62,291 bases of DNA, filler included, from Globobulimina sp. (GCA_003354225.1; 6 parts of 6 records of this genome joined end to end with filler, not necessarily neighbours in it), one strand, 5' to 3'; shown: positions 3,023 to 61,300, numbered from the whole stretch's first letter. Notes: generated by a model not told the origin, from the sequence alone. Numbers and translations: made by a program.

Positions 3023-3074
3023 GTACTGTGACCGCCTTTATGTTTTGTATTTATATTGTCACTAAAAAAATTGA

Positions 3075-3740: not shown

Positions 3741-3744
3741 TAAA

Positions 3745-10386: not shown

Positions 10387-10443
10387 TGTGTTGTTGGAAA
10401 TTATTGCATTGGATATATTGGTATCATAATATGTGAATAATTT

Positions 10444-10543: not shown

Positions 10544-10815
10544 AATATAAATAATTCAACATATATTCGCGTTTTGAAAGTTTGAATGGCAGCCATTATA
10601 AAATATATAAATGCGCAGAGATTTTCACTTAAGTCTGACAAGAAAAGAAAGAATGTCGACCTAGAAACAATTAAAACCTCCATCACTTCACTTCAGTTAG
10701 ACTTACAACAAAAACGCTGCAGTTTTATGGAATAAAATACTAAACTTTCCTAAGTTCTCCCCCTTACATTACTTCAGCAGCCATACCCTCGCTCTCGATT
10801 TCTTCACAGTGCCTA

Positions 10816-13800
10816 TTGGATGCACCCCCTAGTGCTTGGCCTATTTATTGTGAAACGTTAAATCAAGATGATACATATGGTTCATTGGAAAGAAATACAA
10901 CTCAGTTACAACATTATGAAACCATTGGAAAATTTACTATTAAACGCTACAACAAAACGATAATAAGACAATATCAATACTACTACAATTGGATACAAAT
11001 TGAATACAAATGTATCCAAATAATGAATAATTTAATAAAGAATGAAATAATATCCACCCCCCCAATAAATGAAACCAATGTCATCTCAAATATCCCACAA
11101 AAAAAAGGCACTTTAAACTCCAAATTGCATCAAAAATTTACCACAATAAGTGGGCCAGCACACCCCCAACAAAACCCGTACATCAACAACATCGCAGTCA
11201 CAACAACATTACAATCAACAAAGCTGGAATTTGCGGTACAAACAGCATGGATAACAACTAAAACTGTGTCAGAAGTTGCTATCCTTGCTGATAACATTAA
11301 TTTTATTATTTTGCTTGATCTGCTTGTTTCAGATACAACATTTGTACTCTATGTGTTTGTATATTATACTTTCATTTACCTTTCAATAATTTTGTATATT
11401 GTGTGTTATTTATATCCAATTAATAATAATATCGAATGTGATATCACTCATTGCGAGATACTACAACAAACCACCAACATACACTATAATACTAGCTCTT
11501 ACTCACTGGCACTAAAAGAAAACTCTTTCATCAAACAATCAAAAACAATCTCCCTTTCCTTTCACTATCTTTCTCACTATACACTTTCTTTAAAATCACA
11601 TAAAATTAGATGGAAGAAGACAAAAAAGGTGAATATACAAAAAAATACATTGACAAAAACACATAAACAACACAATATACTTTCAGACAATTTCGACCAA
11701 TATACATTTGGTGACAATGACAATGCGTCGCAAATACCTTTCCCAAAACAAAAAGCATCCCCAAATCCTTTAAAACGTACGCACACAGAATCCAAACAAC
11801 CTGCAGATGCCCAAACTCCCCAAACTAAAACACGCCATTTCTCCATTTCGAACCCATCAAAACATGCTTCCCGTTTAAAATATATTGCGGGTATACAGAC
11901 TGTCCCTGACAAGGCGCAATCTGTCCGTATCAAATGTGTTACCAAGATCATACCCAATAAAATCACCACGTTCAGAGATTTTAATGCATTGAATTTGGTG
12001 TTTGATCAAACCAAATTAATATACAAAGCTCCAGCACCATTAACCGCCGCAACCACTGTTTCCAGTCAGATTGAGCGTAATAAGGCATTGATCATAAAAT
12101 TTGAGAATTTCCAATACAACAACACCATGAAATGGGTAAACAGAGCAACCAAACACCATGAAATGATAAAATTAGACGCAAATCCGCGCATTGTATTTGA
12201 TAAAATTTATATTAATAATCGCATGGCAGATAATTTATGGATACGTAAAGGGCCCGGTTTCATGGTACAATTAGCTGATGCACAAATTAGTAAAACAAGA
12301 GAAGAATTGCAGCCGCGTATGCCTCCTGTTTCTGTGATATTTGACTGCCAAGTTTACGTACATATGTCGTATGTGGTGGCATTTTATAACTCGCTCACAA
12401 ATATTATGGGTAACACCGACGGCATTTTAGCATATATTGGAGCGTTGCATGGTGATGCGAGTAAAACTGGCGCCGGTTATTATTTTGAGTCCACAAATTC
12501 TGCGTTGTTAGAATACATAACAAATGTCGTTGGAAAAACACTGCCGCTGCAATATGACGCCAACCTCTATGGCAAGCCGCTACGTATTAGAATCCAGGAT
12601 AATATGCCAAGATATCACAAAACCGCATTCATTGTATCGTCCAATGGAATCAATGCGCTATCATTTGGAGCAAAAAAGATGGGAACTTATATGTGGCTGA
12701 AGAATAAATTCTGTTTATATTTAAATGCATCCATTTTTGACCAAATTGATTTGGCCAAACAGTATCTGGTAAACACTGTGGATTTGACGTATTTGTGGGA
12801 TCGTTTGGGTTTTTTGGTGAGTGACAAGAAATTATTGACATTGAATTTGCGCAAACCGAAATTAGAAGACGTTCGTTCGTGGATTTGCACGATGCAAAAT
12901 TCGTTGGTGAATGGACATTTATTGTCGTGTCACATTATGTCGCCGTTCCTGTATAAGAAAGAAGTCGATTATATAATAAGTCAGCTATGCCCACCAATAA
13001 CGGATTTACATATCGTCGGATTCGCACATCCGCATCAAATATATTCGAACCATCACTCGTTCAAATTCACCACAGAGAATACGCCGCGTTATGTGTTTTG
13101 TGGAGTGCCGGCCGCAGACTTAAACGATAAAAACAAACCCACCACCAATTTGGTATTAGCGTGCAACACAGTGGTTATTAATGGAATGGTCGCCAACATC
13201 TTAGAAACTTACACCGATGACATTGTGGAACGTGCAGCTATGTCTATTAACCGTCCATCAAACTGCTATTACTGCCCATCAATTTATTGTGCCACTCCTG
13301 GTAAATGTGCATGGTTCGACGCCAAATTGGCGGAAGCAAAGCAAAATAAAAAATACGAGATGATACAAAATCAGACGACGGCAGCGGTGATGGAGAAAGT
13401 GTTACGAAATATGAAACGAGCCAGAATCCAGTCGAAATGCGGACATTTGTCCAATAAATGTGAGGGCTGTGACACGACACGACCTCAACTCGAAGATGGT
13501 TACAAAGTGACAGCGTTTAATGGTAACGCGCCCAACGAGCAAACACTGACATTATATTATCATTCATTTGGCATCGCGTCGATTAAAAATCTGATAATCA
13601 ACAATAAAAAAGTGGTATGGGACGAGTTATCCACGATGGACCAGTTGGCATTTACCCTTAATAAATATGTTAAACATAAATTCCATGACAATGACATCGG
13701 CCATTTATTATTTAATAAAGTGTTATTTGTCAATGATAATAAAGAATTGGAATTGAATCAGAATGCATTGGATGTCTTAATCGCCAAACAGACGGAAGGC

Positions 13801-13917
13801 GTTGATCTCTCCTCAAAATACACAGTGCAGCAAACCTACAGTATCTCCGAACGACCGCCCGAAGATAATTCAAATAACACAAACAATAACAAGGAGAACG
13901 CCAATGATTCTCAATGA
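10816..13917 (+). CDS. LINE ORF1-like protein of unknown family, with a C-terminal Cys/His motif; start uncertain (listed start is TTG, first ATG is 11023)
   Basis: Directly upstream of ORF2 with an ATGA stop/start overlap. Blocks shared with 58332..61424: SQIPFPK, PNPLKR, KTREEL, IQSKCGHL..KC.GC...RPQLEDG. Confidence 0.82.
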   Translation: MDAPPSAWPIYCETLNQDDTYGSLERNTTQLQHYETIGKFTIKRYNKTIIRQYQYYYNWIQIEYKCIQIMNNLIKNEIISTPPINETNVISNIPQKKGTLNSKLHQKFTTISGPAHPQQNPYINNIAVTTTLQSTKLEFAVQTAWITTKTVSEVAILADNINFIILLDLLVSDTTFVLYVFVYYTFIYLSIILYIVCYLYPINNNIECDITHCEILQQTTNIHYNTSSYSLALKENSFIKQSKTISLSFHYLSHYTLSLKSHKIRWKKTKKVNIQKNTLTKTHKQHNILSDNFDQYTFGDNDNASQIPFPKQKASPNPLKRTHTESKQPADAQTPQTKTRHFSISNPSKHASRLKYIAGIQTVPDKAQSVRIKCVTKIIPNKITTFRDFNALNLVFDQTKLIYKAPAPLTAATTVSSQIERNKALIIKFENFQYNNTMKWVNRATKHHEMIKLDANPRIVFDKIYINNRMADNLWIRKGPGFMVQLADAQISKTREELQPRMPPVSVIFDCQVYVHMSYVVAFYNSLTNIMGNTDGILAYIGALHGDASKTGAGYYFESTNSALLEYITNVVGKTLPLQYDANLYGKPLRIRIQDNMPRYHKTAFIVSSNGINALSFGAKKMGTYMWLKNKFCLYLNASIFDQIDLAKQYLVNTVDLTYLWDRLGFLVSDKKLLTLNLRKPKLEDVRSWICTMQNSLVNGHLLSCHIMSPFLYKKEVDYIISQLCPPITDLHIVGFAHPHQIYSNHHSFKFTTENTPRYVFCGVPAADLNDKNKPTTNLVLACNTVVINGMVANILETYTDDIVERAAMSINRPSNCYYCPSIYCATPGKCAWFDAKLAEAKQNKKYEMIQNQTTAAVMEKVLRNMKRARIQSKCGHLSNKCEGCDTTRPQLEDGYKVTAFNGNAPNEQTLTLYYHSFGIASIKNLIINNKKVVWDELSTMDQLAFTLNKYVKHKFHDNDIGHLLFNKVLFVNDNKELELNQNALDVLIAKQTEGVDLSSKYTVQQTYSISERPPEDNSNNTNNNKENANDSQ

Positions 13918-16900
13918 TCTTTGTCGCTCACAATAATGGCTATATAATTAGCCAAATCGTCATAAAACTAATCTTATTTTTATCTCTCTCGCCATCAATA
14001 TTTGTCTTTCCTTTTTTCCAACATTTTTTTCATCACTTTTTACTCTTTTCGATCTCCTATGCTTTATTTTTATTTTTTATTCTCTCACTCTCTATGAATT
14101 TGTTCTTGATTGCTATGACCCCAACTTTCTGTGCCAATAATTTGATGAGTAAACAATTTGATTTATTCATACAAATTAATAATATGCATACAACTTTTAA
14201 TTTTAAATCTAATATATTTGCATCAGAACTGATTTCTCACCAAAAAAAAATCCAACTGCTTCACAACCTCTCCTTGCAATTTGAGACTCGCCAAAAGTAT
14301 AACAATTCTCAGATCCAAACCAAACAGACCAATCGCTATTTTACTCAGTCCAAAACAAGTCATTCTGTACATAATTATTTCAATCATTATCGACATCTAA
14401 TCAAAACGCAATGTGTCTCTGGTTATATGATTAGTACAAAAAAACACAAACATACGCCTGAACTGTATAAATTCATCGAGAAGCACCAATATCGGCTGCG
14501 GAAATACTATAAACACATTAAGATCATAATGGACAAATCGCTCCGATGGATTACAATGCGAATGCCACAACACAGATACCACCCAATAAAACACTACATT
14601 GTCTGCCAATTCCCGAAACAAATTAAACTTCGATTCAAGAAAGTGCCATACAACAACGAGAGTGTTGAAAAGACTCCGTACCAACAGCTGCATGCTTTCA
14701 GTAAAAGCCCAAGTAAGGTTTTGAAACTTCACGCATTTATACTCAAAAACGATTATGTTGTGAACGAGCCGGTGCTGCAGCAGTCAGTTAAACATAACAA
14801 ATATCATATAAAATGGTTTGTGCCTACAGATAAAAATGTGAGATGGATCCAAAATCATTGGGATGCTACGCACTTTGAATTAAATATGAAACTACACACT
14901 TTAAATAGAAACAATTGGATAAACAATCAAAAAAACAACGCAATAATATCACTTAACCAGATTTACAAATTTGCAATCAATAATTATAAGACACAAAATC
15001 CGAAACTGCGACAATATAAAAACTATTTGATTAATAAAACCATACAGCAACACACAACAAATACTAAAAATGAAAAGTCCGATATTCCACAAACCATTTT
15101 GAGATACCCGTTCATGCAAATCTATGCTCCAAACGTTGAGCCTCTCACCACCACCAAAATAAAAATAAAGAACCTCACCATTGGCTTCCTGAACATAAAT
15201 GGAAAGGCCAAGACCAAAATAAATCAGATGCACCCTTATATGCAGCAGCTTGTAATACATCACAAGTTGGACATAATACTATTGATTGATACACGAAGAG
15301 TGCACAGACCCGATTGGAATCTGCCTGGCTATAAACTAATAGTCCATAAATCCCCTGTAACGTCAAACAACCCCAAGAATGTTGGTGGTATATTGATTTA
15401 TCACAAAATGAATCTGAAAAACAAAATAAAACTAATAAAAAAGACCAGAGGGCACAACACCGCCTGGATAGCGGTAGACAGCGTAAACGGCACCAAACCA
15501 ACCTACATAGCAGTGAATTATGCCCGTACTCACAAATCAGATAATGCCAAACGCAGTGCTGCATTCTATCAGACTCTAACAGATGATATCCATAAATATA
15601 AAACATGCTGCAATGATATGTATGTAATCGGCGACTTTAATGCCCGAATGGGTGCCATGACCATGGATATTGCCAAAAATGCGCATTATAAGTATATGAA
15701 GGCACTGCTTGACGCCACCAAACTAAAAATAGCTAATCCGCAGTTTGCCCCGCAATTCCTAACCTGCCTCGCAAAGGGCGCCAGAAATAATGGTGGCTCC
15801 ATAATTGACTATGTCATAACGGAGAGATTGGATACCATCAAATCAATGCAAGTTGACACACATCCTGTTTTTATGGACCATCGACCAGTGATCTTTACCC
15901 TTAATAATACTGACTGTCAAACGGATGTGATTGATAAACATTTTATATTACGACAGTATGAACCCAATGATGCGCTGATAAAATCACATTATAACATCCT
16001 AAAAAACAGATCGCGACACCTCCAGAAGTTTGCCGCCAATACGAAATTCTACCAAAGTGAGCCGGACAGAGAATACATTTCAAATATAACGTCAATAACT
16101 GCCATCTACATATTACATCTGGCCACCATTAAAGCCTTTGGAATCGTTGATTTTGACTCTGCCAATAATTGGACGAATATAACATCAAAGCAGGTCTCCT
16201 TAAACATAAAACAGAGACTTTTCATGAATACTAATACGAACACAAATGAGATGCATAATTTAATAGTTGAAGCTGAAAAAGAATTTGAACTGAATAAACA
16301 ACATAAACTGACCCAGAATACCATCCGTTTTAATAATCTAAACCATTCTAATAAATTAAAAACGTTCAAGACGTACAATAAAAACAAAGATTACGTCGTT
16401 GACGAACCCTTCTTGACGTATAAAAATAAAATAATGGATAAAAACACGGCGCTGCAACAATTCTTTGGGTCCATTTGTGGCCCAATGGATGACCCAATAA
16501 TTAATGATAAACTGCTTGATATTAATACCTTTAATAATAAATTGAACAATCACGTCAAGAATGACTTGATTTTCATCCCTCACAAACCTAAAAAAGAGAA
16601 TGATGGCTCCACTGTGGACGTGACGCCACCCATTGCAATCACTGAAAATCTGCTTCCCTCCCACGATGACGAGCAGTCTGCGGATGCACTAACACCGCAC
16701 TTTGACCCCAGCTTTTTACCTCCCACCCAACCAATATTGAACCAGCTATATAGTTTGGAGCATAATGAAAGTGATAGTGATGACGATGATGATGTCATAC
16801 TAAATATCCAACGCCAAACACCTGGATATTTACCAGAACGTAGTATCCAACAAGAAAATGAGGAGAAGAAGGAGTGTGAAGATATACCAAACCCCAAAGC

Positions 16901-19900
16901 TAGCAAATTTAAATCGATTGAAATCGCAATAAAACAGGCAAATCCTAACAGTGCCCCGGGCTATGATGGAATAAAAACAATACATCTTAAAACAAATTCG
17001 GTCCTAATAAACGAAATCCTGTGCACCCTCTATAATGTCTGGAATAGCACATATTTCATTCCATATTACTTCCGGTTGGGTTCCATAATCCCGATACTAA
17101 AAACGCCGAATGGTTGCACCCCAAATCAATACCGGCCCATAACTCTCCTACCAATAATATTTAAGGCATATGAACGGTTGGTGCTGTGGGAAATGTGCAT
17201 ACAGCACAAATTCAGAGCAAATCTACATATTTTACAAGGTGGCAACCGCTCAAGAAGAGGGGTGCCGGAACAGATAGGAGCACTAAACTTGATTGCAGAG
17301 ACTGCAAAGATGCGTGAGATCCCATTGTACTGTGCGCTTTTGGACATACGTAAGGCCTTTGATACAGTGTGGAGAAAGGGCCTCATATTCAAATTACACA
17401 CACACTTTAATATTCCCATCCATATATGCAAAATAATAAAGGCAATATACAATAATTCGCATGCTGCAATTCGTGATATCCCGTTCATTTCTAATAAATT
17501 TGTATTGCACAATGGTGTGTTGCAGGGCTCTGTACTATCCCCAGTATTGTATGCTGCATTCCTCAATGATATGATATATACGCTCCAGGCCTCTGAAAAT
17601 GGCGCCTTTTCGCCAGATCCCAATAAAAAGATAGCGTGCATCTTCTATGCGGATGATATAATCTTGACAGCGAATAAAATATCTCACCTTCACAAATCAA
17701 TAAAAATCTGTGAGCGGCACAGCAAACTATGGAACTACCAATTTAATGATAAAAAATGTATGACCATGATTTACAACGATGACTCAATAAACACAAATAA
17801 CATTGACACATACAACATAAACGACATAATTCTAATAAACCACGAGTACCATGCAACCGATGCTATACACCATGGTAAACCCGCGCCGATGATACTGACA
17901 CAAAAACCGATAAATGGCCAGATAATGGCGTTGGACATATATAACCAAACCAGAGCATATAATAAAGAGGAGATACCCCCCAATCACCTTAAACAGTTTC
18001 TGAGCCATGTAAGTTTCTATGGCGATATTGCCAATAAACCGTTTCCGATCATGTGGAATAACATGCGCTATGATCGCAGTTACAGCCCGTCTGTGATGCA
18101 CCATAAGTTACGTCTAAACGGCAAACGACTATGCTGCACAACATATATGAGATACTTAGGTGCCATGCTGTGCAGCTATGACGCCACGAACTTAGTCTCC
18201 ACTGAATATACTAACAAACACTTTCTAAAAAAGCTTGACAATAAAGCAAGAATTCTAAACACATTGGATTTTAATCATGATTATATTTCCCTCGACGACA
18301 AAATCCGAATCCTCAAGACATTTTATTTAGTATATACTGAGATCTTTGCCCAAGTCTTGGACAGTGATGCAATAAACCTCACAGAAGCCAATCAGAAACA
18401 ACTAAATGCAATCCGCAGACAGACAAATATCAAACACTTTGTCCCTAAACAACTATATCTGTGGGCTGGAATACCCACTCCCTTTGAACGATGGGTATCA
18501 TTGAAACTGGTCTTTTATTGGAAATTATTACATATATCGAATGTTTCCTTAATGCATAAATGGGCCCAATTGTCCCATATCCACCATCATAAACTATATA
18601 AACAATACGCGGAGTTGAAGACAAAATGGTTGCCAATAGTAACCAACATAGTTGACGATGAGGTCCAGATGACCGATCCCTTTGATATAGTCAATGAACC
18701 ACATGAACTAAGACCAATTGTAATAACGGCGCAACATAAACACATACTTAATACATTGAACAAATATCATCCTTTGAAAATACTAAAACACATAACAAGT
18801 GATTATAAACCAATGAATATGTACGAAGTGACTGAGTTAGCGGATTATGTGAAACCACCAATGATTGAACCATACCGTGCGTTGTTTTATAATTTCAACC
18901 AAAATGATCCATACTGCAATCTTTGCTGTAATAACATCAATAAACCATTGGAGGTACACCTTGCTGTCCTCTGTCCAATCCTAAATGATCTAAGACAAGA
19001 ATATTGGTATCATGCAAGCTTTACCTTCGCCAAAAATGGATCAGAGATAAATAAAGTCCATAACCAACTGTATATGCAACGACTCATTGAAATGTGTCGC
19101 AATGTCAATGTCCATAAATCGCAATTCTGGAAAATCCTTTGTGGTGCCAATATTTATGAAACTGAATCAAATGAATTTGTATATAAACATAAACCAATAA
19201 ATATAAACGTGAATAAATACACTTTGTACAGAAATTTAATATCCCAGACTCACCGATGGATTTACAACATATACCGTCTAAATCAAAATACTTTGAATTT
19301 GAGAAGAATGAGAAACAAACACATCACAGACCCGAGCAAAATGCCATTATATCACACCCGCAATAGAAACATCAGAGAATGGAATGCAGCCAAGCACAGA
19401 CTGGAGAATAATGACCTTATAATAGCCACCGATTCGTCGCATGACCCAATTACCAACACCACTGGAATAGGTGTATTCATCTTAGACAGAAATAGGGTCC
19501 ATTGCTTTGCTCAACCAATTGGTGCCCAAACCAACCATTTTGGTGAGCTGTTCGCGATACACAAATCTGAGTTTCTTATAAAATATTGCAAAATAAATAC
19601 TGATAATCGACGTAAGATAATATTTACGGACTCGTTATATAATTTCGTACCACTAATCACAACCCCCCGAAACATAAATAAATTAGCACATTCGAACCTA
19701 TTTATCAACACACAAAAGTACATAAAAAGAAGCCAGAGTATATTGTGGAAAGTCAAATCACATACTAAACCAAAACAGCAACCCTTTAATAACGTGGCTG
19801 ATAAACTAGCAGAAATTGGAAGAATGCATCCCAATAATTCTAATTATCTGACTGTTAACTTCAACTCTGTGCAATATGCTAAATACCAAGCATTTGAATA

Positions 19901-19991
19901 CAACGATGGTATCTCCTTTGAGACCATCAACAACCTCGCCGGGATGTTCCAGCAATCGGTGAGTATGGAGCCAGACTTACTCCCTGGCTGA
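13914..19991 (+). CDS. LINE ORF2 polyprotein: unknown N-terminal domain, APE endonuclease, reverse transcriptase, CCHC finger, RNase H
   Basis: APE: IGFLNING, VIGDFNA, IIDY, MDHRPV. RT: SAPGYDGI, YRPITLL, LLDIRKAFDTV, GVLQGSVLSP, YADD (17646-17657), RYLG. CNLC...HLAVLC. RNase H: ATDSS, GEL, FTDS, KVKSH, VADKLA. Confidence 0.95.
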   Translation: MIFVAHNNGYIISQIVIKLILFLSLSPSIFVFPFFQHFFHHFLLFSISYALFLFFILSLSMNLFLIAMTPTFCANNLMSKQFDLFIQINNMHTTFNFKSNIFASELISHQKKIQLLHNLSLQFETRQKYNNSQIQTKQTNRYFTQSKTSHSVHNYFNHYRHLIKTQCVSGYMISTKKHKHTPELYKFIEKHQYRLRKYYKHIKIIMDKSLRWITMRMPQHRYHPIKHYIVCQFPKQIKLRFKKVPYNNESVEKTPYQQLHAFSKSPSKVLKLHAFILKNDYVVNEPVLQQSVKHNKYHIKWFVPTDKNVRWIQNHWDATHFELNMKLHTLNRNNWINNQKNNAIISLNQIYKFAINNYKTQNPKLRQYKNYLINKTIQQHTTNTKNEKSDIPQTILRYPFMQIYAPNVEPLTTTKIKIKNLTIGFLNINGKAKTKINQMHPYMQQLVIHHKLDIILLIDTRRVHRPDWNLPGYKLIVHKSPVTSNNPKNVGGILIYHKMNLKNKIKLIKKTRGHNTAWIAVDSVNGTKPTYIAVNYARTHKSDNAKRSAAFYQTLTDDIHKYKTCCNDMYVIGDFNARMGAMTMDIAKNAHYKYMKALLDATKLKIANPQFAPQFLTCLAKGARNNGGSIIDYVITERLDTIKSMQVDTHPVFMDHRPVIFTLNNTDCQTDVIDKHFILRQYEPNDALIKSHYNILKNRSRHLQKFAANTKFYQSEPDREYISNITSITAIYILHLATIKAFGIVDFDSANNWTNITSKQVSLNIKQRLFMNTNTNTNEMHNLIVEAEKEFELNKQHKLTQNTIRFNNLNHSNKLKTFKTYNKNKDYVVDEPFLTYKNKIMDKNTALQQFFGSICGPMDDPIINDKLLDINTFNNKLNNHVKNDLIFIPHKPKKENDGSTVDVTPPIAITENLLPSHDDEQSADALTPHFDPSFLPPTQPILNQLYSLEHNESDSDDDDDVILNIQRQTPGYLPERSIQQENEEKKECEDIPNPKASKFKSIEIAIKQANPNSAPGYDGIKTIHLKTNSVLINEILCTLYNVWNSTYFIPYYFRLGSIIPILKTPNGCTPNQYRPITLLPIIFKAYERLVLWEMCIQHKFRANLHILQGGNRSRRGVPEQIGALNLIAETAKMREIPLYCALLDIRKAFDTVWRKGLIFKLHTHFNIPIHICKIIKAIYNNSHAAIRDIPFISNKFVLHNGVLQGSVLSPVLYAAFLNDMIYTLQASENGAFSPDPNKKIACIFYADDIILTANKISHLHKSIKICERHSKLWNYQFNDKKCMTMIYNDDSINTNNIDTYNINDIILINHEYHATDAIHHGKPAPMILTQKPINGQIMALDIYNQTRAYNKEEIPPNHLKQFLSHVSFYGDIANKPFPIMWNNMRYDRSYSPSVMHHKLRLNGKRLCCTTYMRYLGAMLCSYDATNLVSTEYTNKHFLKKLDNKARILNTLDFNHDYISLDDKIRILKTFYLVYTEIFAQVLDSDAINLTEANQKQLNAIRRQTNIKHFVPKQLYLWAGIPTPFERWVSLKLVFYWKLLHISNVSLMHKWAQLSHIHHHKLYKQYAELKTKWLPIVTNIVDDEVQMTDPFDIVNEPHELRPIVITAQHKHILNTLNKYHPLKILKHITSDYKPMNMYEVTELADYVKPPMIEPYRALFYNFNQNDPYCNLCCNNINKPLEVHLAVLCPILNDLRQEYWYHASFTFAKNGSEINKVHNQLYMQRLIEMCRNVNVHKSQFWKILCGANIYETESNEFVYKHKPININVNKYTLYRNLISQTHRWIYNIYRLNQNTLNLRRMRNKHITDPSKMPLYHTRNRNIREWNAAKHRLENNDLIIATDSSHDPITNTTGIGVFILDRNRVHCFAQPIGAQTNHFGELFAIHKSEFLIKYCKINTDNRRKIIFTDSLYNFVPLITTPRNINKLAHSNLFINTQKYIKRSQSILWKVKSHTKPKQQPFNNVADKLAEIGRMHPNNSNYLTVNFNSVQYAKYQAFEYNDGISFETINNLAGMFQQSVSMEPDLLPG

Positions 19992-20055
19992 ATGTGCCCC
20001 TACTACTACTAATAGCAAGTACATTAACCATACGTTATTTTGTTTTATCGCCAAC

Positions 20056-52125: not shown

Positions 52126-52143
52126 ATAGTAGTAGGGGAACAT

Positions 52144-55100
52144 TCAGCCAGGATCTAAGTCTGGCTCCATGCTCACCGATTGCTTGAACATCCCGGCGAG
52201 GGTGTAAAGTTGGTTGGGTATGATACCCTGCGGATAGAGATATGATTTGTATTTGGCATATCTGATTGAATTATAATTCGTTGTGATGAGGTTGGAGTTG
52301 CGGGGGTGTTGTCGACCTATTTCTGCTAATATGTCTGCAATTTGATTAAAGGGTTGTTGGTATGGTTTGGTATGTGATTTCACTTTCCATAGTATAATTT
52401 TGTCACGTTTGATATAGTTTTGCGTGTTTTTGAATAGGATAGATAGTGGTTTCTTATTTGAATGTTTCGGAGTGATTATTAGTGGGAGGAAATTGAACAA
52501 GGAATCGGTGAATATTAGGATTCTTCGGTTAGTAGTATCTATTTTGCAGTGATTTATGAGGAATTGCGATTTGTGGATGGCGTACAATTCACCATAGTGA
52601 TTTGACTGTGATCCAATGGGTTGAGCGAAGCAATGTATTTTATTTCTGTCAATAATGCAGATACCTATTCCTGCAGTGTTTGTGTGTGGATCGCGGGACG
52701 AATCTGTGGCTATTATCAAGTCATTGGCATTAATCTTGTGTTGATAATAGCGCCATTCATTGAAATTATTATTACGTATGTGGAACATTATCATTTTTGA
52801 GGGAACTAAGTTATGTTTACATCGGATGCGTTTTATGGTGCTTTTCCCATTGTTTATATTGAGTACGTGGGTGAGCCAACGGTGCGTTTGGGAGACTACC
52901 TCTTTGTATAATGTATGTTTGTTTGTGTTAATGTTTATTTGTGTATGTACATAGGCAAATTTATTAGTGTCAGTATTATATATATTTGCACCACAAAGGA
53001 TTCTCCAGAATTGAGCTTTTTGCAAATTGACATTATGGCAGATTTCAATCAGTCGTTGCATGTATAGATGGTGATGTATTTTATTTATCGCGGCACCACT
53101 TTTTGCAAACGTTGCAGAGGCATGATTCCAGTATTCATGTCTCAAGATATTTAGATTGGGGCAGAGTACTGCTAGGTGGTATTCAATGGGGACATTAGTT
53201 CGGGAATGGCAGAGATGGCAGTAATTATTTTTTGTGTTGAAATTATAAAATAACTCTCTGTAAACCTGGATCATATCTGTTTTTACGTAATCTGCCAATT
53301 CATTAATTTCATAGCAATTCATTGGTTTATAGTTATCAGTGATATGGTTTAGGATTTTGATTGGATGATAATGATTTAATGCATTAATGATTTGGATATG
53401 TTGGTTTTTCACAATTAAAGGTTTTAATTCATGCGAATGTGTCACGGAATCAAAGGGATCTATCCAGATGGTTTTGTTGTTTATGGTTTGCTGCGTGGGT
53501 GGTAGCCATTTATTTTTTAAATTAATATATTGTTTGAAAAGTTTGTGGTGGTGGATATGAGACAGTTTTGCCCATTTATGCATCATGGATATATTACCTC
53601 CTTTTAGGAGTTTCCAATAGAAGGACATTTTGAGGGATACCCAACGTTCATAGGGGGTGGGGATACCCGCCCACAGATAGAGTTGTGCCGGAACGAAATT
53701 TTTTATTTGTGTCTGCGTGCAAATTGTTTTTAGTTGCTTATCTGTGGCTTCTTTCAATTTTATTTTTTCACAATCAAGAACTTGTGCGAATATTTCCGTG
53801 TAAACTAAATAGAAAGTCTTCAGTATGCGTATTTTATCAGCGAGGGAAATAAAAATGTGATTGAAATCCAGGTTTGCTAAAATGCGAGCTTTTGAGTCAA
53901 GTTTTTTCAGAAACACTGCATTCGTATACTTCGTCGACACCAAATTGGTGTTGTCGTAACTGCACAACTTAGCACCAAGATATCTAATGAATGTTGTGCA
54001 GTGCAGTCGTTCTCCATTCAAACGTAGCTTCAGATGCATCACCGACGGTGTATAGTTGCGGTCATAGCGAATATTATCCCACATTATCGGGTATGGCTTA
54101 TTGGAGATATCATTATAGAATTTTATGTGGTCTATGAAGCGTTGTAAGTGTTTTTGAGGGATCTCATCAACGTTATATTCTTGCAATTTATTATTAATAT
54201 TTATTGCCAGTACTTTGTGATTTATTGGTTTCTGGATTATTATCATCGGAGCAGGCTTATTATTTGCTATTTTATTTATGTTATGGTATTCATGGTTTAT
54301 TAACATTATATCGTGTATATTGTATGTATTTATATTGTTGTTATTGAGAGTGTTATCATTGTAAATAATTGTTTTTGATTTTTTATTATTGAATTGGTAG
54401 CGCCAATGGTTGCTGTGCTTCTGGCAGATTTTTAATAGTTTATTCAAATGGGAGATTTTATTCGCGGTCAAAATGATATCATCCGCGTAAAAAGTGCATG
54501 CAATCGGTTCATTGGGGTCAGGAGAGGCGGCTCCACACTCTGACTGTTGTAATTCCTCAATTAAATCATTCAAGAACGCTGCATAGAGGACAGGGGAGAG
54601 AACTGACCCTTGTAACACACCATTATGGAGCAAGAATTTGTTTGTTATAAAGGGTATGTCTCGTATGGCAGACTGCGAGTTGTCATAGATGGCCTTTATT
54701 ATTTTGCAGAGATGTAATGGTATTTTGAAGTGATTATTTAGTTTATAGAGGAGTCCTTTCCTCCAAACAGTATCAAACGCTTTCCGTATATCAAGAAGTG
54801 CACAGTAAAGGGGGATTTCTCTCATTTTGGCTGTTTCTGCGATCAAATTGATACAACCAATTTGCTCTGGGACTCCTCTTCTTGATCTATTGCCGCCTTG
54901 TAATGTATGTAGGTTTCTCCTGAATTTATGTTTTATACTCATTTCCCAAAGGATTAATCTTTCATATGTTTTAAAAATAATAGGTAACAATGTGATGGGC
55001 CGGTATTGATTGGGGGTATTACCATTTTTTGTTTTTAATATCGGTATTACAGTGCCCAACCTCCAATAATATGGGATGAAGAATGATTGGTTCCATACAT

Positions 55101-58100
55101 TAAACATCGTACATAGCAGTTCGTTTATGGAGCGTCCATTGGTTTTGAGGTGCACAGATTTGATCCCGTCATATCCCGGGGCGCTATTTTGATTTGCATA
55201 GGAAATGGCCAGTTCGATGGAATGGTATTTTGCTTTTTTATTGGTATTGAGTTCATTATGGCGAGGCAGTGTGTTGTCAACCTCCTCCTTTTTTTCATCC
55301 TCCTCTTCAATGCTGGTGCGAAGTGGCGGAGTGTGCGGCGTTTGTAATGGTATCCCTATAATTACATCGTTATCGCTGTCGTAGGTCTCGTCATTATTTT
55401 CCAAGTCATATAATTCATCTCTGAGCGGTTGCGTTGTTGGGACATAGTTGGGGTCATAGTGCGGAGTGTGAAGGTTATTATCCTCTATTTCATAATTTAT
55501 ATTTGTGTCAATATTTATAATTGCAGGTATTGGGGAAGTTTCTGATGTATTATGTAGGTCATCTTCCGTAGGTATTTGAGGGATGAATGTGAGGGTGTTA
55601 ATGGACTGTTTATTGAGTGTATTTTGGAAATCATTAATTGCAGTTATCTGGGGGTTGTCGTCGGGGTCATTTATGGGACCGTTTATTTTGCTGAAAAATT
55701 GTGAGAGCGCTTCATTTTTGTCCATTATGACATCATTATAATTTAGGAACGGCTCATCCAATATGAAATCTTTGTTTTTATTGTATCTTTTGAAGGTTTT
55801 AAGTTTATTGCAATGGTCGAGGTTGCTAAATCTTATGGTATTTTGCGTCAAAGTATTTTGTTTATTACGTATGTATTCCGCCTCTGACTCAGCCATTAAT
55901 ATTTTGCCTTCATTGGTGTTATTATTTGTGTTCATTAGCAATCTCTGTTTTATGTTTAGAGTGACCTGTTTCCGCGACAGTGTGGACCATTTATTGGTAG
56001 TATTAAAATCTGCCAAACCAAATGCTTTAATTGATGCCAAATGTAATATGTAGGCGGTAGTGATGGAGGTGATGTGGGAGATAAATTGGCGTTCATTTTT
56101 ATTTTGGTGGTGTTTTATGTTTGCAGCAAACTGTTTGAGGTATTTTGTGGAATTCTTTATTATTTTATTGTGTATTTTTAAAAGCTCTTTGTTAGGGCCA
56201 CTGGTTCTGAGTATTAGATGTTTATCGATGGCGGCAGTCTCACATTTGGCATTATTTAAGGTGAAGACAACGGGTCTGTGGTCCATGAAGACCGGATGAG
56301 TGTCAACATTCATTGACTGGATGGAGTTCAATTTGTTGGTGATTACATAATCTATGATTGAACCACCACTGTTTTGGACTCCTTTTGCCAAACATGTAAG
56401 GAATTTGGGAGCAAATTGGGGGTTCGCTATTTTTAGGTTGGTGCGATCCAGCATCGTTTTCATGTATCGATAGTGTCCATTGGTGTTATGATCCATTGTC
56501 ATGGATCCCATTCTGGCATTAAAATCGCCTATGACATACATATTATGGCAATGTGATTTATATTTATTGATATCGTCAGTTAGGGAGTTATAGAATTTGA
56601 GGCTGCGTTTACTTAATTTTGGTTTGTATGTTCGTGTGTAATTTATGGCAATGTAGGTGGGTTTTATTTGGTTTTTGATGTTGACAGAGATCCACGTGGT
56701 GTTATGCCCTCTCGTTTTTTTAATTAGCTTTATTTTATTTTTTAGATTGTATTTGTAATATATTAGGATCCCGCCAACATTTTGCAAGTTGTTTGTTGCT
56801 ATGGGCGCTTTATGAGCCATCAAATTGTAACCAGGTAGTCTCCAATTTGGGCGATGTGTCATCCTGGTGTCAATCAGTAGAATTATGTCCAATTTATGGT
56901 GTGTTACAAGCTGCTGCATATATGGATGCATTTGGTTTATTTTAGTTTTGGCATTGCCGTTAATGTTCATGAAGCCAATCTTCATATTTTTTAGTTTAAT
57001 TTGGGTGGATGTTATTGGTTCAATGTCTGGGGCATATATTTGCATAAATGGATATTTTAGGATTGTTTCAGGGATATCATCAGCAGCAAGCAAAGTGTTG
57101 TTAATATGACCCTGTATTACTTTGCTTATCATATAGTTTTTATATCTACGGAGTTGTGTATTTGTAGTGTGGTGTTTGTTTACTGCTCGTTTGAATATTT
57201 GATTTAATGAGATAACTGCGTTGTTTTTTTGATTGTTTATCCAGTTATCTCTGTTTGCGGAGTGTATCTCCATATTTAAGCTGTTATGGGTTCCTTGCCA
57301 ATGATTTATAATTTCATGGATTTTTTTATCCCTCGGAGCAAACCATTTTATGTGGTAGTTGTTATTGGCGACTGCTTGTTGTAAAATTAAATCATTCTCA
57401 ACATAGTTGTTTTTGAGTATGAAGTCATACAGTGCCAAGATTTTCGTTGCGCTTCTATTAAAAGCATGGAGCTGTTTGTAAACTGTAAGCTCAGCGGTTT
57501 CGTTAATATAGGGAACCTTCTTAAATCGAATGGGTATATTCGACGGAAAATGGTTCACAATGAACGACTTGATTGGGTGATATCGATGCTGTGGCATGCG
57601 AATCGTTATCCATCTCAATGATTTATCCATCATGATTTTAAGATATCGATATATTTTACGTAGACGATGTTGATATCGCTCAATGAAGCGGTAAAGGGAT
57701 TGCGTGTGTTTATGATGTTTAGTGCTTATCATGTATCCCGTTACGCATTCAGTTTGGATCACATTCATGTAATGATTGAAGTAGTTATGGATGGAATATG
57801 TTGTTTTGATTCCGAGGTAAAATCGGTTATTTTGTAGTGTGTCAAGTACGGAGCGGAACTGTTTCCGATCACTAACGTTATGTATATGTTTTATTTTGTT
57901 TGTGATTAAGGCGAGAATTGGTATTGATTTTAATTTAAAATAAGGAGAATGGCTCAGAGCATCGGTAGTAACAACGTCCACCGCATGCAAATCAATGAAC
58001 CGATAAACGAAAAAAGAAGAATTAAAATTATAATGAAGTAAGAAAAAAGTAGGTGGTATACGGAAGAAGAAGAAAAAACAAATAAAATTCAATAGAAATG

Positions 58101-58326
58101 AGAAAAAAATGGGTTTTATAATTACGGGGTATAAGAAAAAAGAGGGATTAAATGTAGGTAAATATGATGAAAAAAGAGAGCTAATGGTGGTGTGAATGCA
58201 TTTTATTTGACACAAACAGAGTAATAATAATAGAAAAAATAAATAGGAAGATATGGAGTTTGGGCGCAAGTTGGAAGGTTTCATGACGATCGGGCTGATA
58301 CAGCCATTATTGGTACGAATAAGCAT
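52144..58326 (-). CDS. LINE ORF2 polyprotein (unknown N-domain, APE, RT, CCHC, RNase H)
   Basis: IGFMNING, VIGDFNA, MDHRPV; SAPGYDGI, LLDIRKAFDTV, YADD (54478-54489), RYLG; CHLC...HLAVLC; ATDSS, GEL, FTDS, KVKSH, IADILA. Confidence 0.95.
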   Translation of the reverse strand: MLIRTNNGCISPIVMKPSNLRPNSISSYLFFLLLLLCLCQIKCIHTTISSLFSSYLPTFNPSFFLYPVIIKPIFFSFLLNFICFFFFFRIPPTFFLLHYNFNSSFFVYRFIDLHAVDVVTTDALSHSPYFKLKSIPILALITNKIKHIHNVSDRKQFRSVLDTLQNNRFYLGIKTTYSIHNYFNHYMNVIQTECVTGYMISTKHHKHTQSLYRFIERYQHRLRKIYRYLKIMMDKSLRWITIRMPQHRYHPIKSFIVNHFPSNIPIRFKKVPYINETAELTVYKQLHAFNRSATKILALYDFILKNNYVENDLILQQAVANNNYHIKWFAPRDKKIHEIINHWQGTHNSLNMEIHSANRDNWINNQKNNAVISLNQIFKRAVNKHHTTNTQLRRYKNYMISKVIQGHINNTLLAADDIPETILKYPFMQIYAPDIEPITSTQIKLKNMKIGFMNINGNAKTKINQMHPYMQQLVTHHKLDIILLIDTRMTHRPNWRLPGYNLMAHKAPIATNNLQNVGGILIYYKYNLKNKIKLIKKTRGHNTTWISVNIKNQIKPTYIAINYTRTYKPKLSKRSLKFYNSLTDDINKYKSHCHNMYVIGDFNARMGSMTMDHNTNGHYRYMKTMLDRTNLKIANPQFAPKFLTCLAKGVQNSGGSIIDYVITNKLNSIQSMNVDTHPVFMDHRPVVFTLNNAKCETAAIDKHLILRTSGPNKELLKIHNKIIKNSTKYLKQFAANIKHHQNKNERQFISHITSITTAYILHLASIKAFGLADFNTTNKWSTLSRKQVTLNIKQRLLMNTNNNTNEGKILMAESEAEYIRNKQNTLTQNTIRFSNLDHCNKLKTFKRYNKNKDFILDEPFLNYNDVIMDKNEALSQFFSKINGPINDPDDNPQITAINDFQNTLNKQSINTLTFIPQIPTEDDLHNTSETSPIPAIINIDTNINYEIEDNNLHTPHYDPNYVPTTQPLRDELYDLENNDETYDSDNDVIIGIPLQTPHTPPLRTSIEEEDEKKEEVDNTLPRHNELNTNKKAKYHSIELAISYANQNSAPGYDGIKSVHLKTNGRSINELLCTMFNVWNQSFFIPYYWRLGTVIPILKTKNGNTPNQYRPITLLPIIFKTYERLILWEMSIKHKFRRNLHTLQGGNRSRRGVPEQIGCINLIAETAKMREIPLYCALLDIRKAFDTVWRKGLLYKLNNHFKIPLHLCKIIKAIYDNSQSAIRDIPFITNKFLLHNGVLQGSVLSPVLYAAFLNDLIEELQQSECGAASPDPNEPIACTFYADDIILTANKISHLNKLLKICQKHSNHWRYQFNNKKSKTIIYNDNTLNNNNINTYNIHDIMLINHEYHNINKIANNKPAPMIIIQKPINHKVLAININNKLQEYNVDEIPQKHLQRFIDHIKFYNDISNKPYPIMWDNIRYDRNYTPSVMHLKLRLNGERLHCTTFIRYLGAKLCSYDNTNLVSTKYTNAVFLKKLDSKARILANLDFNHIFISLADKIRILKTFYLVYTEIFAQVLDCEKIKLKEATDKQLKTICTQTQIKNFVPAQLYLWAGIPTPYERWVSLKMSFYWKLLKGGNISMMHKWAKLSHIHHHKLFKQYINLKNKWLPPTQQTINNKTIWIDPFDSVTHSHELKPLIVKNQHIQIINALNHYHPIKILNHITDNYKPMNCYEINELADYVKTDMIQVYRELFYNFNTKNNYCHLCHSRTNVPIEYHLAVLCPNLNILRHEYWNHASATFAKSGAAINKIHHHLYMQRLIEICHNVNLQKAQFWRILCGANIYNTDTNKFAYVHTQININTNKHTLYKEVVSQTHRWLTHVLNINNGKSTIKRIRCKHNLVPSKMIMFHIRNNNFNEWRYYQHKINANDLIIATDSSRDPHTNTAGIGICIIDRNKIHCFAQPIGSQSNHYGELYAIHKSQFLINHCKIDTTNRRILIFTDSLFNFLPLIITPKHSNKKPLSILFKNTQNYIKRDKIILWKVKSHTKPYQQPFNQIADILAEIGRQHPRNSNLITTNYNSIRYAKYKSYLYPQGIIPNQLYTLAGMFKQSVSMEPDLDPG

Positions 58327-58331
58327 AGCGA

Positions 58332-61300
58332 TTATGGCTCGTCGACGGAATCATCGTTATCGTCGTTGACATTTTTATTCGTGTTATTATTGTTGTTATT
58401 GCTCATTATTTCACAGTCCGCGTCCTCTTCATCTTCATTTTTATAGTCATTGTCAGCGTCATTATTATCGACATCGGAGTCATCATCATGTTGGATGGCG
58501 TATTTCCTGATGACTTTGGTTCGAGTGCGTAGCGTGGCGCCTTCGTTTTGTTTAATAAGTAGGGATTCCAATGCATTTTCATTCAAAATTAAGTCATTCT
58601 GGGCGGAAACTGTTAGGATTTTATGGAAAAGGAGGTTGCCAATGTCATTATGTTGGAATTTGGCCGTAATTTCAGGATGAAATGTCAATCCTAACTGGTC
58701 CATCGTATTCATCTCACTCCACACAGTCGGAACGCCATTGATTGTGAGGTCTTTAATGCGCGAAACAGCAAAAGAATGATAGAAAGTGATTAGAGTGTGC
58801 TCACTCGGCGCATTTCCTAAGCCAGGTATCCCTTTGAAGCCATCTTCTAATTGCGGTCTTATCGTGGGACAGCCTTTGCATTTTGATGTTAAATGGCCGC
58901 ATTTTGATTGGATCGTCGCTTTATGTAATTTATTTAGTGCTAAATTGATGGCATTCGAGTCCTTTCCATCGCGTACCATATCCGCTTCAATTTTCGCTTT
59001 TAATTCATCCAATTTGGCATCAAAGGAGCTGCAATGATTTGGTGTGGGGCAGAAATATGACGGGTCATACACGCATTTGTTGGCTAATTGTATGTGCATC
59101 GTAGACATAGCAATGATATCTTGGCGGTATGTCTCTGTAATATGTACTTCTGTGCCACCGACAATGAACGAGTTGGAGGCCAACGCTTTGTTCGCATAAA
59201 AATAATTGTTGTCATGCAAGTCCGCTGCAGGAACACCAGTTAATAGGTAACGCGGCGTATTTTTAAACTGGAATTTGAACGTATTGGCATACGAATGCAT
59301 CTGATATGGATGCGCATAATTTATGACATGGATATCTGGCTCGATTGGCGCGACATTGTTTAATACATAATCGACTTCTTTACGGTTCAAATACGGCGAT
59401 AAATGGTACAAATCCAAGATATTTCCACGTAAAAGCGAATGTTTCGTGGAACAATACCAAGCTTTGGCTGTCGTGGAGTTGCATTTCATTAACGTCAATT
59501 TTAAGCAGCGCGGGTCGGTAATATGGAAGCCCAATACATCCCAAATGTAGCCCAAATCGATTGTATGTGCCTGGTATCTGTTAAGTGTGTCCATATTGTC
59601 TAAAACAGTCAAATTTAATATACGTTTTAATTTCTTGCGACAGCCAAAATAAAGCCCCGTTTTCTTGACAGGGAACGCCAACGCATTGCATCCTCGCGCA
59701 TGTCCATAATAGTCACCGTCGTGATATTCAGCTACATTGTCGGCAACAGTCACTGATAAGGGGTAGTTATTGAATTTCACCTTGTATTTCAACGGCAGCG
59801 GCTCATTAATCACATTATTAATATACTCTAATAACTGCTGGTCCGACGCAACGTAATTAAATCCAGAACCAGTCTTCTTCACTCTGCCATGTAATGCGCT
59901 GATATACGTCAGGATGCCTTGGGTGTCGCCGTCAATGCGCTCTAATGAATTATAGAAGGATTTGTCTGCGTAATAATAGGAATAAGAGGAGGAAGCAAAG
60001 AGGACAGTTAGTGGGGACACTGTGGGTAACAATTCTTCTCTGGTTTTGATAATATTGGCATCTTTCAAGGATGCAATGAAGTCATTCTCTTTATGTATCC
60101 AAATGCGGTCCGATATTCGGTTATTAATAAACACTTTGCCGAATACAATACGGATATGGAAGTCGACGCCAATTTCATTGTGATATTTAGCGGCATTGGC
60201 GATCCATTTGCGGGCACGGTTGATTTGGCCGTCTTGATATTTACGGACCATTTTATCAGAGCGCGTTTCTTCGACATACGCTTTGGTTTTGGTCATAGAT
60301 CTGCGTCGATTGAATCTAATATGGCGTTGATTGAAATCAATTTTTAAATCATCATAATCACTGAACGTCGTCACTGTGTCTGGGACCATCTGCGAGGTAC
60401 ATTTAATTTTAATGGTATTGGCTGACGCAGGAATACTTTCGATGCCTTGAATGTACGATAATTGTTTAATGCCAGCGCCAGGATTTTGGATGGAGAATAA
60501 TTTGGTAGTCTTAGGATGCGGGCTGCCAATATCTAAAAGGGTCGATTCAATGTAATTTCGTTTCAATGGGTTCGGCCGGATGCTGCAAGTATTTATGATG
60601 CTGTCTAAATTTGGAGATTTGGGGAATGGTATTTGCGAGAAGTCATCCATTTGGTCATCATCCTCAAATGGGAAGTCCTCGATAACTGTGTTATATTTTG
60701 TATCAATATTTACGTTTATGTATACTTTTACAGGTATTTGTTTTTGTATATTTACCTTTTTTATCATCAGCCATTGGGAAATGTAGTATTTAATGGGAAA
60801 GGAATAGGATGTGAGTGAGTAGGGAGTTGAGAGTGTGGTAGAAAGGATGTTTATGGAAAGTTTGTTGAAAAACAGTTTAAAGCTACGCGTGCTTTGCTGC
60901 TTATTATTTTGTAGTTGTTTCTCGCAATGAGATATATCATAAATGATATTGTTAGTTAGGAAATGATGATGGATACAATTAGAAAAGACACAAATGGTAC
61001 AACACAAAGAAGAAATAAATATACAAATATTATTGTCAAACTCCGCAGAATGTTTGAAGAAGATGAGATAGTTTGTTATTGGTACTTGATTCATCGTTTT
61101 TGGGATATTTCTGTGTTTAATTAGCTCGTTCAAAGCGAGATCTGTATGATGCAATACAGTATTTTTGTTATTGTCAATGTTATTTTTATTGAATGATTGG
61201 AATACACATTGGTTGGGACAGAAGTACGTTAATTTGACGGAATTGGTTATGTTTTGGACGGTGTTTTCACATTTTGTTATTTTATGGTATAAATGAAACT

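Follow-up and report, generated by a model that had tools for sequence, protein, structure and literature searches.

Two pairs of very long open reading frames (ORFs) in a 62,291-nucleotide stretch of DNA from Globobulimina sp. (GCA_003354225.1), hereafter the window, raise the question whether this foraminifer carries a lineage of long interspersed nuclear elements (LINEs) that is still active and lies outside the described clades, and how such elements would make their proteins. The original prediction, made from the sequence alone, described two intact, diverged retrotransposons without long terminal repeats (non-LTR retrotransposons) of about 9.3 kb, here called A and B, and proposed them as a candidate new lineage. 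After the analysis described below, we give a probability of about 0.7 to the reading that A and B are master-type copies of two families in a recently active foraminiferan lineage of LINEs with an apurinic/apyrimidinic endonuclease (APE), which finds no home among the tested clades (Proto1 and Ambal were not in the trees) and probably represents an undescribed clade.

The window is composed of unrelated contigs joined by N-TTAATTAATTAA-N linkers, and since A and B lie on separate contigs, they are not neighbours; a tandem or LTR-like arrangement of the two was thus ruled out. Element A (10742..20011, plus strand, as are all its features given below) is a full-length APE-type non-LTR retrotransposon that fills most of the second contig (C24), beginning with AAACTTTCC at 10742, a 5′ terminus common to 24 family 5′ ends, and closing with (CTA)4 at 20011, a 3′ end with (CTA)n tail common to family members. 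Element B (52126..61476, minus strand), also full-length, occupies most of the last contig (C28), with its tail clipped by the contig end at 52126. The boundaries predicted for A were correct within a base or two; B begins at about 61476 (predicted, 61473). All four open frames were indeed found uninterrupted, as predicted: ORF1 at 10744-13917 (1057 codons from stop to stop) and ORF2 at 13908-19991 (2027) in A, and ORF1 at 58332-61553 (1073, extending 26 codons into the flank) and ORF2 at 52144-58350 (2068) in B. In B, ORF1 runs from ATC at 61442 to the stop at 58332, and ORF2 from ATG at 58326 to the stop at 52144. The ORF2 products are 2025 aa (A) and 2060 aa (B) long, and those of ORF1 964 and 920 aa from the first in-frame ATG or 1044 and 1036 aa from the near-cognate start proposed below; the predicted ORF1 size of more than 1000 aa therefore holds from stop to stop or from the near-cognate start, but not from the first ATG. 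Pfam matched RVT_1 and Exo_endo_phos in both ORF2s and found no match in either ORF1. Because A and B share only about 69% DNA identity, with 63% identity in ORF2 (1266 of 2010 aligned residues) and 38% in ORF1 (378 of 995), and their synonymous sites are near saturation, we take them from these comparisons to be two families of one lineage; the membership of one lineage stands, but the description as copies of one family does not.

Members of the lineage were divided into group 1, with A, B and their kin (ORF2 of 2025-2068 aa), and group 2, with C56, C323, C861, C178, L184 and P0002 (ORF2 of 1815-1855 aa, with about 50% identity to A). The ORF1s of group 2 are distantly homologous to those of group 1 (hhalign probability 94.6%). 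The ratio of nonsynonymous to synonymous divergence (dN/dS), calculated by the Nei-Gojobori method for unsaturated pairs only, was 0.02-0.19 in every conserved domain, in agreement with the purifying selection first proposed. ORF2 encodes, in this order, a hydrophobic leader, two ferredoxin-like domains, APE, reverse transcriptase (RT) with an insert of about 110 aa, a CCHC knuckle and a His-type RNase H. The two tandem ferredoxin-like (beta-alpha-beta-beta-alpha-beta) domains before the endonuclease (14406..14924; dN/dS 0.06-0.09) were modelled mostly with a predicted local distance difference test score (pLDDT) of 70-90, and gave structure matches at Z 8.0-8.5 (root-mean-square deviation 2.2-3.1 over 71-82 residues) to LepA, YajQ and eIF4E5 for the first domain and to uS10 and CutA for the second. 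Values of Z near 8 point to a common fold, not to a function, and RNA binding by these domains is what we infer from the models. The ESM Atlas search with the same domains gave a single match at 0.79, which is the chance level. The AP endonuclease (15168..15941; PF03372), with the motifs NING, DTRR, GDFNA, IDYV and DHRP, matches AP endonucleases and LINE endonucleases at Z 13-15; the QET motif of APE usually has Glu, and this position is Asp throughout groups 1 and 2. An acidic and variable insert (16518..16892), 38% identical between A and B and absent or short in deep relatives, precedes the RT core (16893..17777; PF00078, E 2e-26), which carries YADD at aa 1247. The insert of about 110 aa between the RT palm and the YLG motif (17778..18137) is conserved (dN/dS 0.02-0.07), and is present in P0002, P0097, P0098 and P0003, not in P0085. 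R2 proteins were the only matches in a PDB sequence search.

The domain account of the original prediction lacked the RNase H at the C-terminus of ORF2. Upstream of it lies the CCHC zinc knuckle C-x2-C-x11-H-x4-C (18915..18974), with the four ligands invariant in 17 of 17 members, and 150 aa past this knuckle begins the His-type RNase H (19410..19814; D1842, E1880, D1908, H1952 and D1965), identified by PF00075 with 28.3 bits for a cut-off of 25.8 and followed by only about 55 aa. PF00075 matched in 13 of the 17 members, and the D-E-D-H-D residues are invariant in all of them; the best PDB sequence matches, 4h8k and 3u3g, cover the first 50 residues of the domain only, at E 0.03-0.05. The CCHC-then-RNase H order was found in P0001, P0002, P0082, P0085, P0090, P0093, P0097, P0098 and P0184, and the deeper relatives that are complete at the C-terminus all share it with a His-type RNase H, whereas I-type rows have CCHC after RNase H.

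These relatives were collected by several searches. A word-based protein search returned 79 matches, among them the close relatives P0001 and P0002 (57-58%), with the rest at 31% or less, and a profile search of 1.84 billion representatives added the deeper relatives P0085, P0091, P0093, P0097, P0098, P0184 and P0090, of which P0085, P0090, P0091 and P0097 can also be aligned over part of the N-terminal domains. One family member, P0080 (52% to A), comes from the EukProt set of Bolivina argentea; together with the match of a gene on another contig to this species, described at the end, it makes a foraminiferan host probable. The first metagenome scan contained no family locus, and the second yielded two (L183 and L184) among 80. 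P0090 (cluster members P0228 and P0229) is a single ORF of 5035 aa, in which about 3100 aa of unmatched sequence, with an internally repeated hydrophobic stretch in this N-terminal part, is fused in frame to the N-terminal domains, APE, RT, CCHC and RNase H. Four family or related LINE proteins (P0083, P0367, P0089 and P0106) are filed under the names of bacterial metagenome-assembled genomes (Desulfobacteraceae, Mesoflavibacter, Marinimicrobia and Sedimenticola), which are probably eukaryotic contigs binned with bacteria.

Outside the lineage, RT identity reaches at most about 34%. In a FastTree of 387 RTs the lineage formed a 41-row group at 0.977, and it was recovered by IQ-TREE on subsets of 33, 39 and 70 of these rows chosen to cover the groups (94/82, 91/83 and an approximate likelihood ratio, SH-aLRT, of 79), the smaller trees with LG+G4 and the 70-row tree being a mixture-model quick tree. 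In the trees, clades were labelled by Pfam signatures, by a few source names and by short motifs set against the named rows in the available part of supplement 7 of PMC5348765. The RT fell outside the L1 and RTE rows and outside the I/Jockey/CR1 assemblage, which is held together at 100/99 without the lineage. The approximately unbiased (AU) test rejected a grouping with L1 (p 0.029, for four L1 rows, the set having no oomycete L1 row), with the RNase H-bearing plant (Linum) L1 row (p 5e-11) and with I-type rows (p 0.004). As to RTE, the RT is apart from the DUF6451-bearing RTE rows, and RTE is without a long ORF1, whereas that of the lineage is about 1040 aa. Among 69 RNase H domains the lineage grouped at 96/98, apart from the I-type RNase H, which fits one separate capture, and the CCHC-before-RNase H order was seen only in the lineage and the neighbour P0220. 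The candidate new lineage is thus upheld in so far as its RT is not nested in any anchor group of the trees, anchors that did not include Proto1 or Ambal. The neighbouring RT group consists of P0220, P0159 and L070 (C13400); the RNase H of P0220, placed after CCHC, groups with I-type domains, which suggests, from the sequences compared, a second and convergent placement.

The lineage was also compared with named groups. According to the accessible part of PMC5348765, plant Ta11 and oomycete L1 are the only non-LTR elements with RNase H downstream of CCHC, and their enzyme is of the Arg type; in the others it lies upstream. These plant and oomycete elements resemble the lineage in having two ORFs, the order APE-RT-CCHC-RNase H and a C-terminal RNase H, but theirs is described there as of archaeal type with Arg at the semi-conserved site, where the lineage has His in 17 of 17. 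Moreover, the lineage RT does not group with L1 rows, and the lineage has no zf-RVT match but extra ferredoxin-like domains, the RT insert and the (CTA)n tail. The I group has APE, RT and His-type RNase H in common with the lineage. Short tandem-repeat tails are common in this group. It comprises I, Ingi, Nimb, Tad1, LOA, R1 and Outcast (PMC4640811, as far as available) and carries RNase H between RT and CCHC, not after CCHC as in the lineage; RT and RNase H trees keep the two apart, and the lineage ORF1 is without a Pfam CCHC gag knuckle. Another possibility is a new family group in a known clade: the lineage would have split off from Proto2 or RTEX on a long branch and acquired an RNase H and further domains. 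Proto2 and RTEX likewise have an APE-type RT, Proto2-like and RTEX-like rows occupy the same zone of the tree, a sister relation is not rejected by the AU test, and the RT motifs PLY..LD..KAFDT and GV.QGS.LSP.LY resemble by eye those of Proto2-1_HM in the accessible part of the same supplement 7. Nevertheless, the Proto2-like rows form a group of their own (100/99) without the lineage, their ORF2s are about 900-1300 aa, the RT identity is as low as stated above, and the RNase H search recovered no Proto2-like or RTEX-like row; we therefore regard this offshoot as quite improbable.

Dualen/RandI elements have a single ORF with APE and a C-terminal restriction-like endonuclease. The lineage differs in its two ORFs and in the short tail of about 55 aa past RNase H, and the single-ORF P0090, too, stops soon after RNase H. 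Ambal elements of diatoms exceed 10 kb, with two ORFs and RNase H, while Proto1 comes from Naegleria and sits with the L1 group. In principle, A and B might be diverged foraminiferan members of one of these two protist non-LTR clades, which we compared by description only; Proto1 is listed as RNase H-bearing in the part of PMC4640811 at hand, and both names stand in the clade list of Repbase as given in PMC5753468, also available in part. A weak point against this assignment is that no diatom or Naegleria was found among the named matches or 30 cluster look-ups, most rows being nameless. In addition, grouping with L1 rows was rejected, and the accessible part of PMC5348765 gives CCHC downstream of RNase H outside plant and oomycete L1, from a tree that holds neither Proto1 nor Ambal. 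On balance, membership of Proto1 or Ambal is unlikely. The literature search on foraminiferan LINEs, on Ambal and Proto1, and on an RRM before APE together with RNase H gave no description of the lineage, with Repbase Reports and most subscription journals outside its range.

In order to see whether the probably undescribed lineage is living, we turn to its members in the assembly. The RT of A gave 131 matches, 90 of which, at 41% identity or more, represent the lineage, the other 41 (24-33%) being other LINEs; 28 of the best 30 matches are without an internal stop. A pattern from the ORF2 end matched 184 places (reversed control, 0), and one for 5′ ends matched 29 (control, 0), of which 24 are with family sequence and 5 without. 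In every intact 3′ end examined, the stop is followed by about 8-10 nt and then by a (CTA)n tail, in A an 8-nt 3′ untranslated region (UTR) plus (CTA)4 (19992..20011), and family 5′ ends open with a variable A run followed by CTTTCC. Identical 5′ ends (about 115 nt compared) stand in different flanks in the pairs C22322 and C26594, and C5784 and C28964, indicating recent insertions. Target duplications were surveyed for the seven copies with both ends placed (A, C81, C1975, C2178, C2076, C1315 and C1263), after eight further rows were dropped, the left boundary of which was the mere end of similarity; four of the seven (C2178 read by eye) have a 6-7 bp word at both ends, overlapping the tail. 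In A this word is TACTAA, with the candidate 5′ copy of a 6-bp target-site duplication at 10738..10743 and the 3′ copy, overlapping the tail, at 20007-20012; similar words are in C81, C1975 and C2178. The survey of copy number, 5′ truncation and duplications that had been proposed as a check thus gave 184 3′ ends for 24 group-1 5′ ends, and duplications in four of seven copies. The elements are without LTRs and have a simple-repeat 3′ tail, many 5′-truncated copies, short target duplications, and in ORF2 an AP endonuclease followed by a non-LTR RT, all as in LINEs. Taken together, the sequence evidence supports a recently active, multi-family, autonomous APE-type LINE lineage. The recent activity originally deduced from the intact frames of A and B is borne out by the family-wide evidence, namely identical 5′ ends, stop-free RT matches and short duplications; the comparison of A with B itself shows only long-term selection. 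Across the element, reads of run X1 reached a depth of 14-35, and in the 3′ flank one of 4-5; this is no measure of copy number and was not counted. L124 (C33, of group 1 or 2) and L148 (C2185, of the other group) have nearly the same 40-nt flank after the tail, which suggests a repeated target site or an insertion hot spot. The last 52 ORF2 codons (19833-19991) have a proportion of synonymous differences of 0.53-0.58, compared with about 0.7-0.85 in the rest of ORF2; such low synonymous divergence is consistent with an RNA signal for the RT that overlaps the coding end.

How do these elements translate their proteins? A pyrimidine-rich 5′ UTR starting with AAACTTTCC (10742..10782), the terminus of which is conserved in the family alignment, is the presumed internal promoter. 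No conserved AUG was found for ORF1, the first in-frame AUG past the 5′ hairpin wandering from codon 17 to 129, but an in-frame ATA at codon -7 (11 copies) or ATA/ATC/ATT at -9 (11 copies) precedes the stem-loop in 22 of the 23 5′ ends with upstream sequence. In A it is the ATA at 10783..10785, the proposed near-cognate start. Group-2 elements have a similar UTR of about 45 nt and then ATG, and in four of them CAATG stands at an equal distance from the pyrimidine-rich 5′ end, the B-type context being CAATH. Just past the proposed start lies a conserved stem-loop TTCACAGTG...TATTGTGAA (10803..10854); its consensus fold, from 19 distinct sequences, has a basal stem of 8 bp, and the z scores are -1.67 (A) and -3.15 (B). 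A downstream hairpin can aid near-cognate starts. The Rfam search of the window gave no match, so no known ribozyme or internal ribosome entry site was seen at the 5′ end. In L167 (C215, 5093-5230), the 5′ terminus before the hairpin is swapped for another sequence, which is still in frame and without a near-cognate ATH.

At the junction between the two ORFs, found in 23 of 28 loci examined, the ORF2 start codon overlaps the ORF1 stop or sits 2-9 nt after it; in A the overlap is ATGA (13914..13917). A hairpin GGCTA-loop-TAGCC (13938..13953 in A), 21-24 nt past the ORF2 start codon, is present in all 23 junctions, of which 17 have ATG, 3 GTG and 3 neither in frame 21-24 nt before the hairpin. 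Its fifth pair is A-T in 11 and G-C in 12 and never a mismatch, and on 8 rows 97.5% of the cells pair, well above slid controls. The closest parallel is SART1, for which stop-start coupling of ORF1 and ORF2 is aided by downstream structure (PMC3894237, in the part available). In both systems an overlapping or adjacent stop and start is combined with a downstream RNA structure affecting ORF2 initiation, but SART1 uses UAAUG, and the lineage an AUGA overlap or AUG/GUG 2-9 nt past the stop with a hairpin of 5-6 bp; the lineage differs also in the parallel near-cognate start plus hairpin for ORF1. Programmed -1 frameshifting was considered, as 6 of 7 junctions are in the -1 frame, but was ruled out, because there is no conserved slippery heptamer, one family is in frame 0 and the start codon keeps a fixed distance to the hairpin. 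A short, conserved ORF in frame 0 past the ORF1 stop was likewise discarded, since it has 3 to 8 codons and is not kept. Another LINE family of this genome (L051, L053, L055, L061, L062 and L063 on C35, C64, C164, C150, C148 and C226) carries GGGAAAC or GGAAAAC either at its ORF1 stop or immediately ahead of it, and has ORF2 in the -1 frame; as judged from sequence, this is a likely site of frameshifting. C388 and C57 are in frame 0.

Both proposed starts open onto fast-evolving leaders. The ORF1 leader (10783..11730) spans about 300 codons, is hydrophobic at aa 177-223 and has dN/dS 0.49-0.73; its frame has 0 stops, compared with 10-26 in the other frames, in six of six diverged families, with 15-19 expected from shuffles, and is stop-free in 21 of 24 5′ ends over the sequence available. 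The ORF2 leader (13914..14324; about 140 codons, hydrophobic at aa 13-72, dN/dS 0.56-0.57) is without a premature stop in 21 of 23 junction copies, and the 130-190 codons after the junction contain 0 stops in frame compared with 7-15 in the other frames in seven of seven families. A similar leader, open, hydrophobic and in frame before the core, is found in the independent record P0232, whereas in group 2 a T-rich non-coding spacer is followed by an ORF2 ATG at the core. The simplest explanation of these patterns would be an early start, after which the ribosome has to traverse the leader in frame. If the leaders were instead untranslated, with both ORFs starting at downstream AUGs and the open frames due to chance or relics, one could understand why leader amino acids are poorly conserved (28-59% identity), why in-frame AUGs exist downstream and why the ORF2 of group 2 begins with an AUG at the core. 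Stop-free frames, however, arose in 0 of 3000 shuffles for each of six ORF1 leaders and in 0-8 of 3000 for each of seven ORF2 leaders, inter-family indels keep the frame, the position of the first AUG wanders, and A has no AUG where group 2 starts ORF2, making untranslated leaders highly improbable. A reading of the leaders as introns was likewise rejected, since copies made via RNA keep them and the alignment skips have no GT..AG ends. The search for a 2A peptide in the leaders found no DxExNPGP.

Alternatively, the frame could be kept open by function, the leaders being membrane anchors or signal peptides that tie ORF1p, ORF2p and the ribonucleoprotein particle (RNP) to a membrane. Hydropathy windows of at least 1.8 in nine of nine group-1 ORF2 leaders (0 of 2 in group 2) and in four of seven ORF1 leaders speak for such a role, as do the leader of P0232 and dN/dS values below 1 (0.49-0.73). 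On the other hand, T makes up 36-42% of the leaders, a share also found in the group-2 non-coding spacer, and the Phe/Leu/Ile content follows from this T-rich composition; group 2 works without leaders, the hydrophobic stretch varies in position and length, and ORF2p has to reach chromosomal DNA. An anchor role is live but less likely than a read-through linker, and on its own we hold it improbable.

ORF1p itself is less well defined. Its conserved core (11731..13917, aa 330-1035), without a Pfam or Atlas match, is predicted to contain an RRM-like alpha/beta domain (about 12607-13245), and a Cys/His cluster lies at 13264-13470. The mean pLDDT of the ORF1 model is 47.8, being better at model residues 301-480, the best structural matches of which are almost all RRMs (Z 5.1-5.7), weakly suggesting an RRM-like domain. 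No usable match was obtained in ESM Atlas and none at E<=0.001 with Foldseek, and ORF1 profiles found no match in the N-terminal 3000 aa of P0090 or in two other ORF1s of the genome. The unusual lengths emphasised earlier for both ORFs are real, but upstream ORFs measure 1198-1902 aa in other LINE families of this genome, so that the size of ORF1 alone is not distinctive.

From these results the following cycle may be proposed for the lineage. The pyrimidine-rich internal promoter at the 5′ terminus, as its conservation and LINE biology suggest, would produce one bicistronic RNA. ORF1 would be started at the near-cognate AUA/AUC/AUU about 40 nt from the cap with the help of the stem-loop 20-27 nt downstream, at the place where the sister group 2 has a normal AUG, and ORF2 would follow by termination-reinitiation, by likeness to SART1, at the AUG/GUG overlapping or 2-9 nt past the ORF1 stop, with the hairpin 21-24 nt downstream. 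What were once the 5′ UTR and the spacer between the ORFs would in group 1 have turned into translated leaders serving as linkers, stop-free while their amino acids drift because the ribosome must presumably read through to the conserved cores. ORF1p, with its RRM-like domain and Cys/His cluster, may package the RNA; ORF2p may bind it, probably via the two ferredoxin-like domains, and recognise the last 60 nt or so, mostly inside ORF2. According to established LINE chemistry, APE would then nick AT-rich DNA and the (CUA)n tail pair with a few target bases, and target-primed reverse transcription would give the 5′-truncated and full-length copies with short target duplications that are seen. 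The element's own His-type RNase H, probably gained once and placed after CCHC, would remove RNA before second-strand synthesis.

Several observations weigh against parts of this reading. The wide lineage is moderately supported (79 in the quick tree under the mixture model, bootstrap 91-94 in the others), clade labels rest on no Repbase references, the named references not being in the trees, and AU tests did not reject sister relations to Proto2-like rows (p 0.059), RTEX-like rows (0.31) and two unnamed groups (0.24 and 0.32). In the RNase H tree the unrelated P0333 falls inside the lineage group, and the neighbour P0220 combines this domain order with another RNase H. As to translation, the covarying fifth pair may reflect one or two events because the copies are related, the hairpins are weak alone (z from -0.04, for the ORF2 hairpin of B, to -3.15), leaders carry stops in 3 of the 24 5′ ends and in 2 of the 23 junction copies, C215 is without a near-cognate codon and 3 of 23 junctions lack an in-frame ATG or GTG. 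The ORF1 model, finally, is poor, as its pLDDT indicates.

A bolder version would make the lineage a deep new LINE clade in which both proteins use hairpin-assisted non-canonical starts (near-cognate AUH for ORF1, stop-coupled AUG/GUG for ORF2), membrane-inserting leaders from UTR and spacer tether the RNP, and tandem RNA-binding ferredoxin-like domains are combined with an independently captured His-type RNase H; this combination as a whole seems doubtful. With the more restrained reading of a recently active and probably undescribed lineage, Rhizaria, a supergroup with very few genomes (PMC13746701, available in part), would gain a living LINE branch. It would add a further independent capture of RNase H by non-LTR elements, in a combination (His-type and after CCHC) that the accessible parts of PMC5348765 and PMC4640811 do not report; the former calls the reason for such captures enigmatic. 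Translation of LINE proteins is called an open question in the available part of PMC3894237, and the lineage may offer a natural experiment on it, in that two sister groups coexist in a single genome, of which one starts at AUG and has a spacer that is non-coding, and the other has near-cognate or coupled starts, hairpins and translated leaders, in dozens of variants. The leaders would also be a visible case of coding sequence born from UTR.

The remaining contigs of the window carry unrelated features. At 1-10443, bacterial chemotaxis genes (Hpt/CheA, MCP and a LuxR-type regulator; GC content 0.41-0.43) abut a eukaryote-like IPT/TIG repeat protein of 2248 aa with a Cys-rich end (GC 0.27-0.35); with a junction near 3790, where two frames overlap at 3745-3797, this contig is likely an assembly chimera of host and associated bacterium. 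An intact single-ORF Ty3/Gypsy-type element (33748-40359, plus strand; 2203 aa) encodes RT, RNase H and integrase, and self-comparison of the window showed no LTRs around it, no search having been aimed at LTRs. A 64-bp tandem repeat of 3.9 copies (31029-31327) lies at a contig end, and a palindrome of about 100 bp (41957-42057) near the start of another contig. A fatty-acid hydroxylase gene on a further contig has its best match (68%) in Bolivina argentea, a foraminifer.

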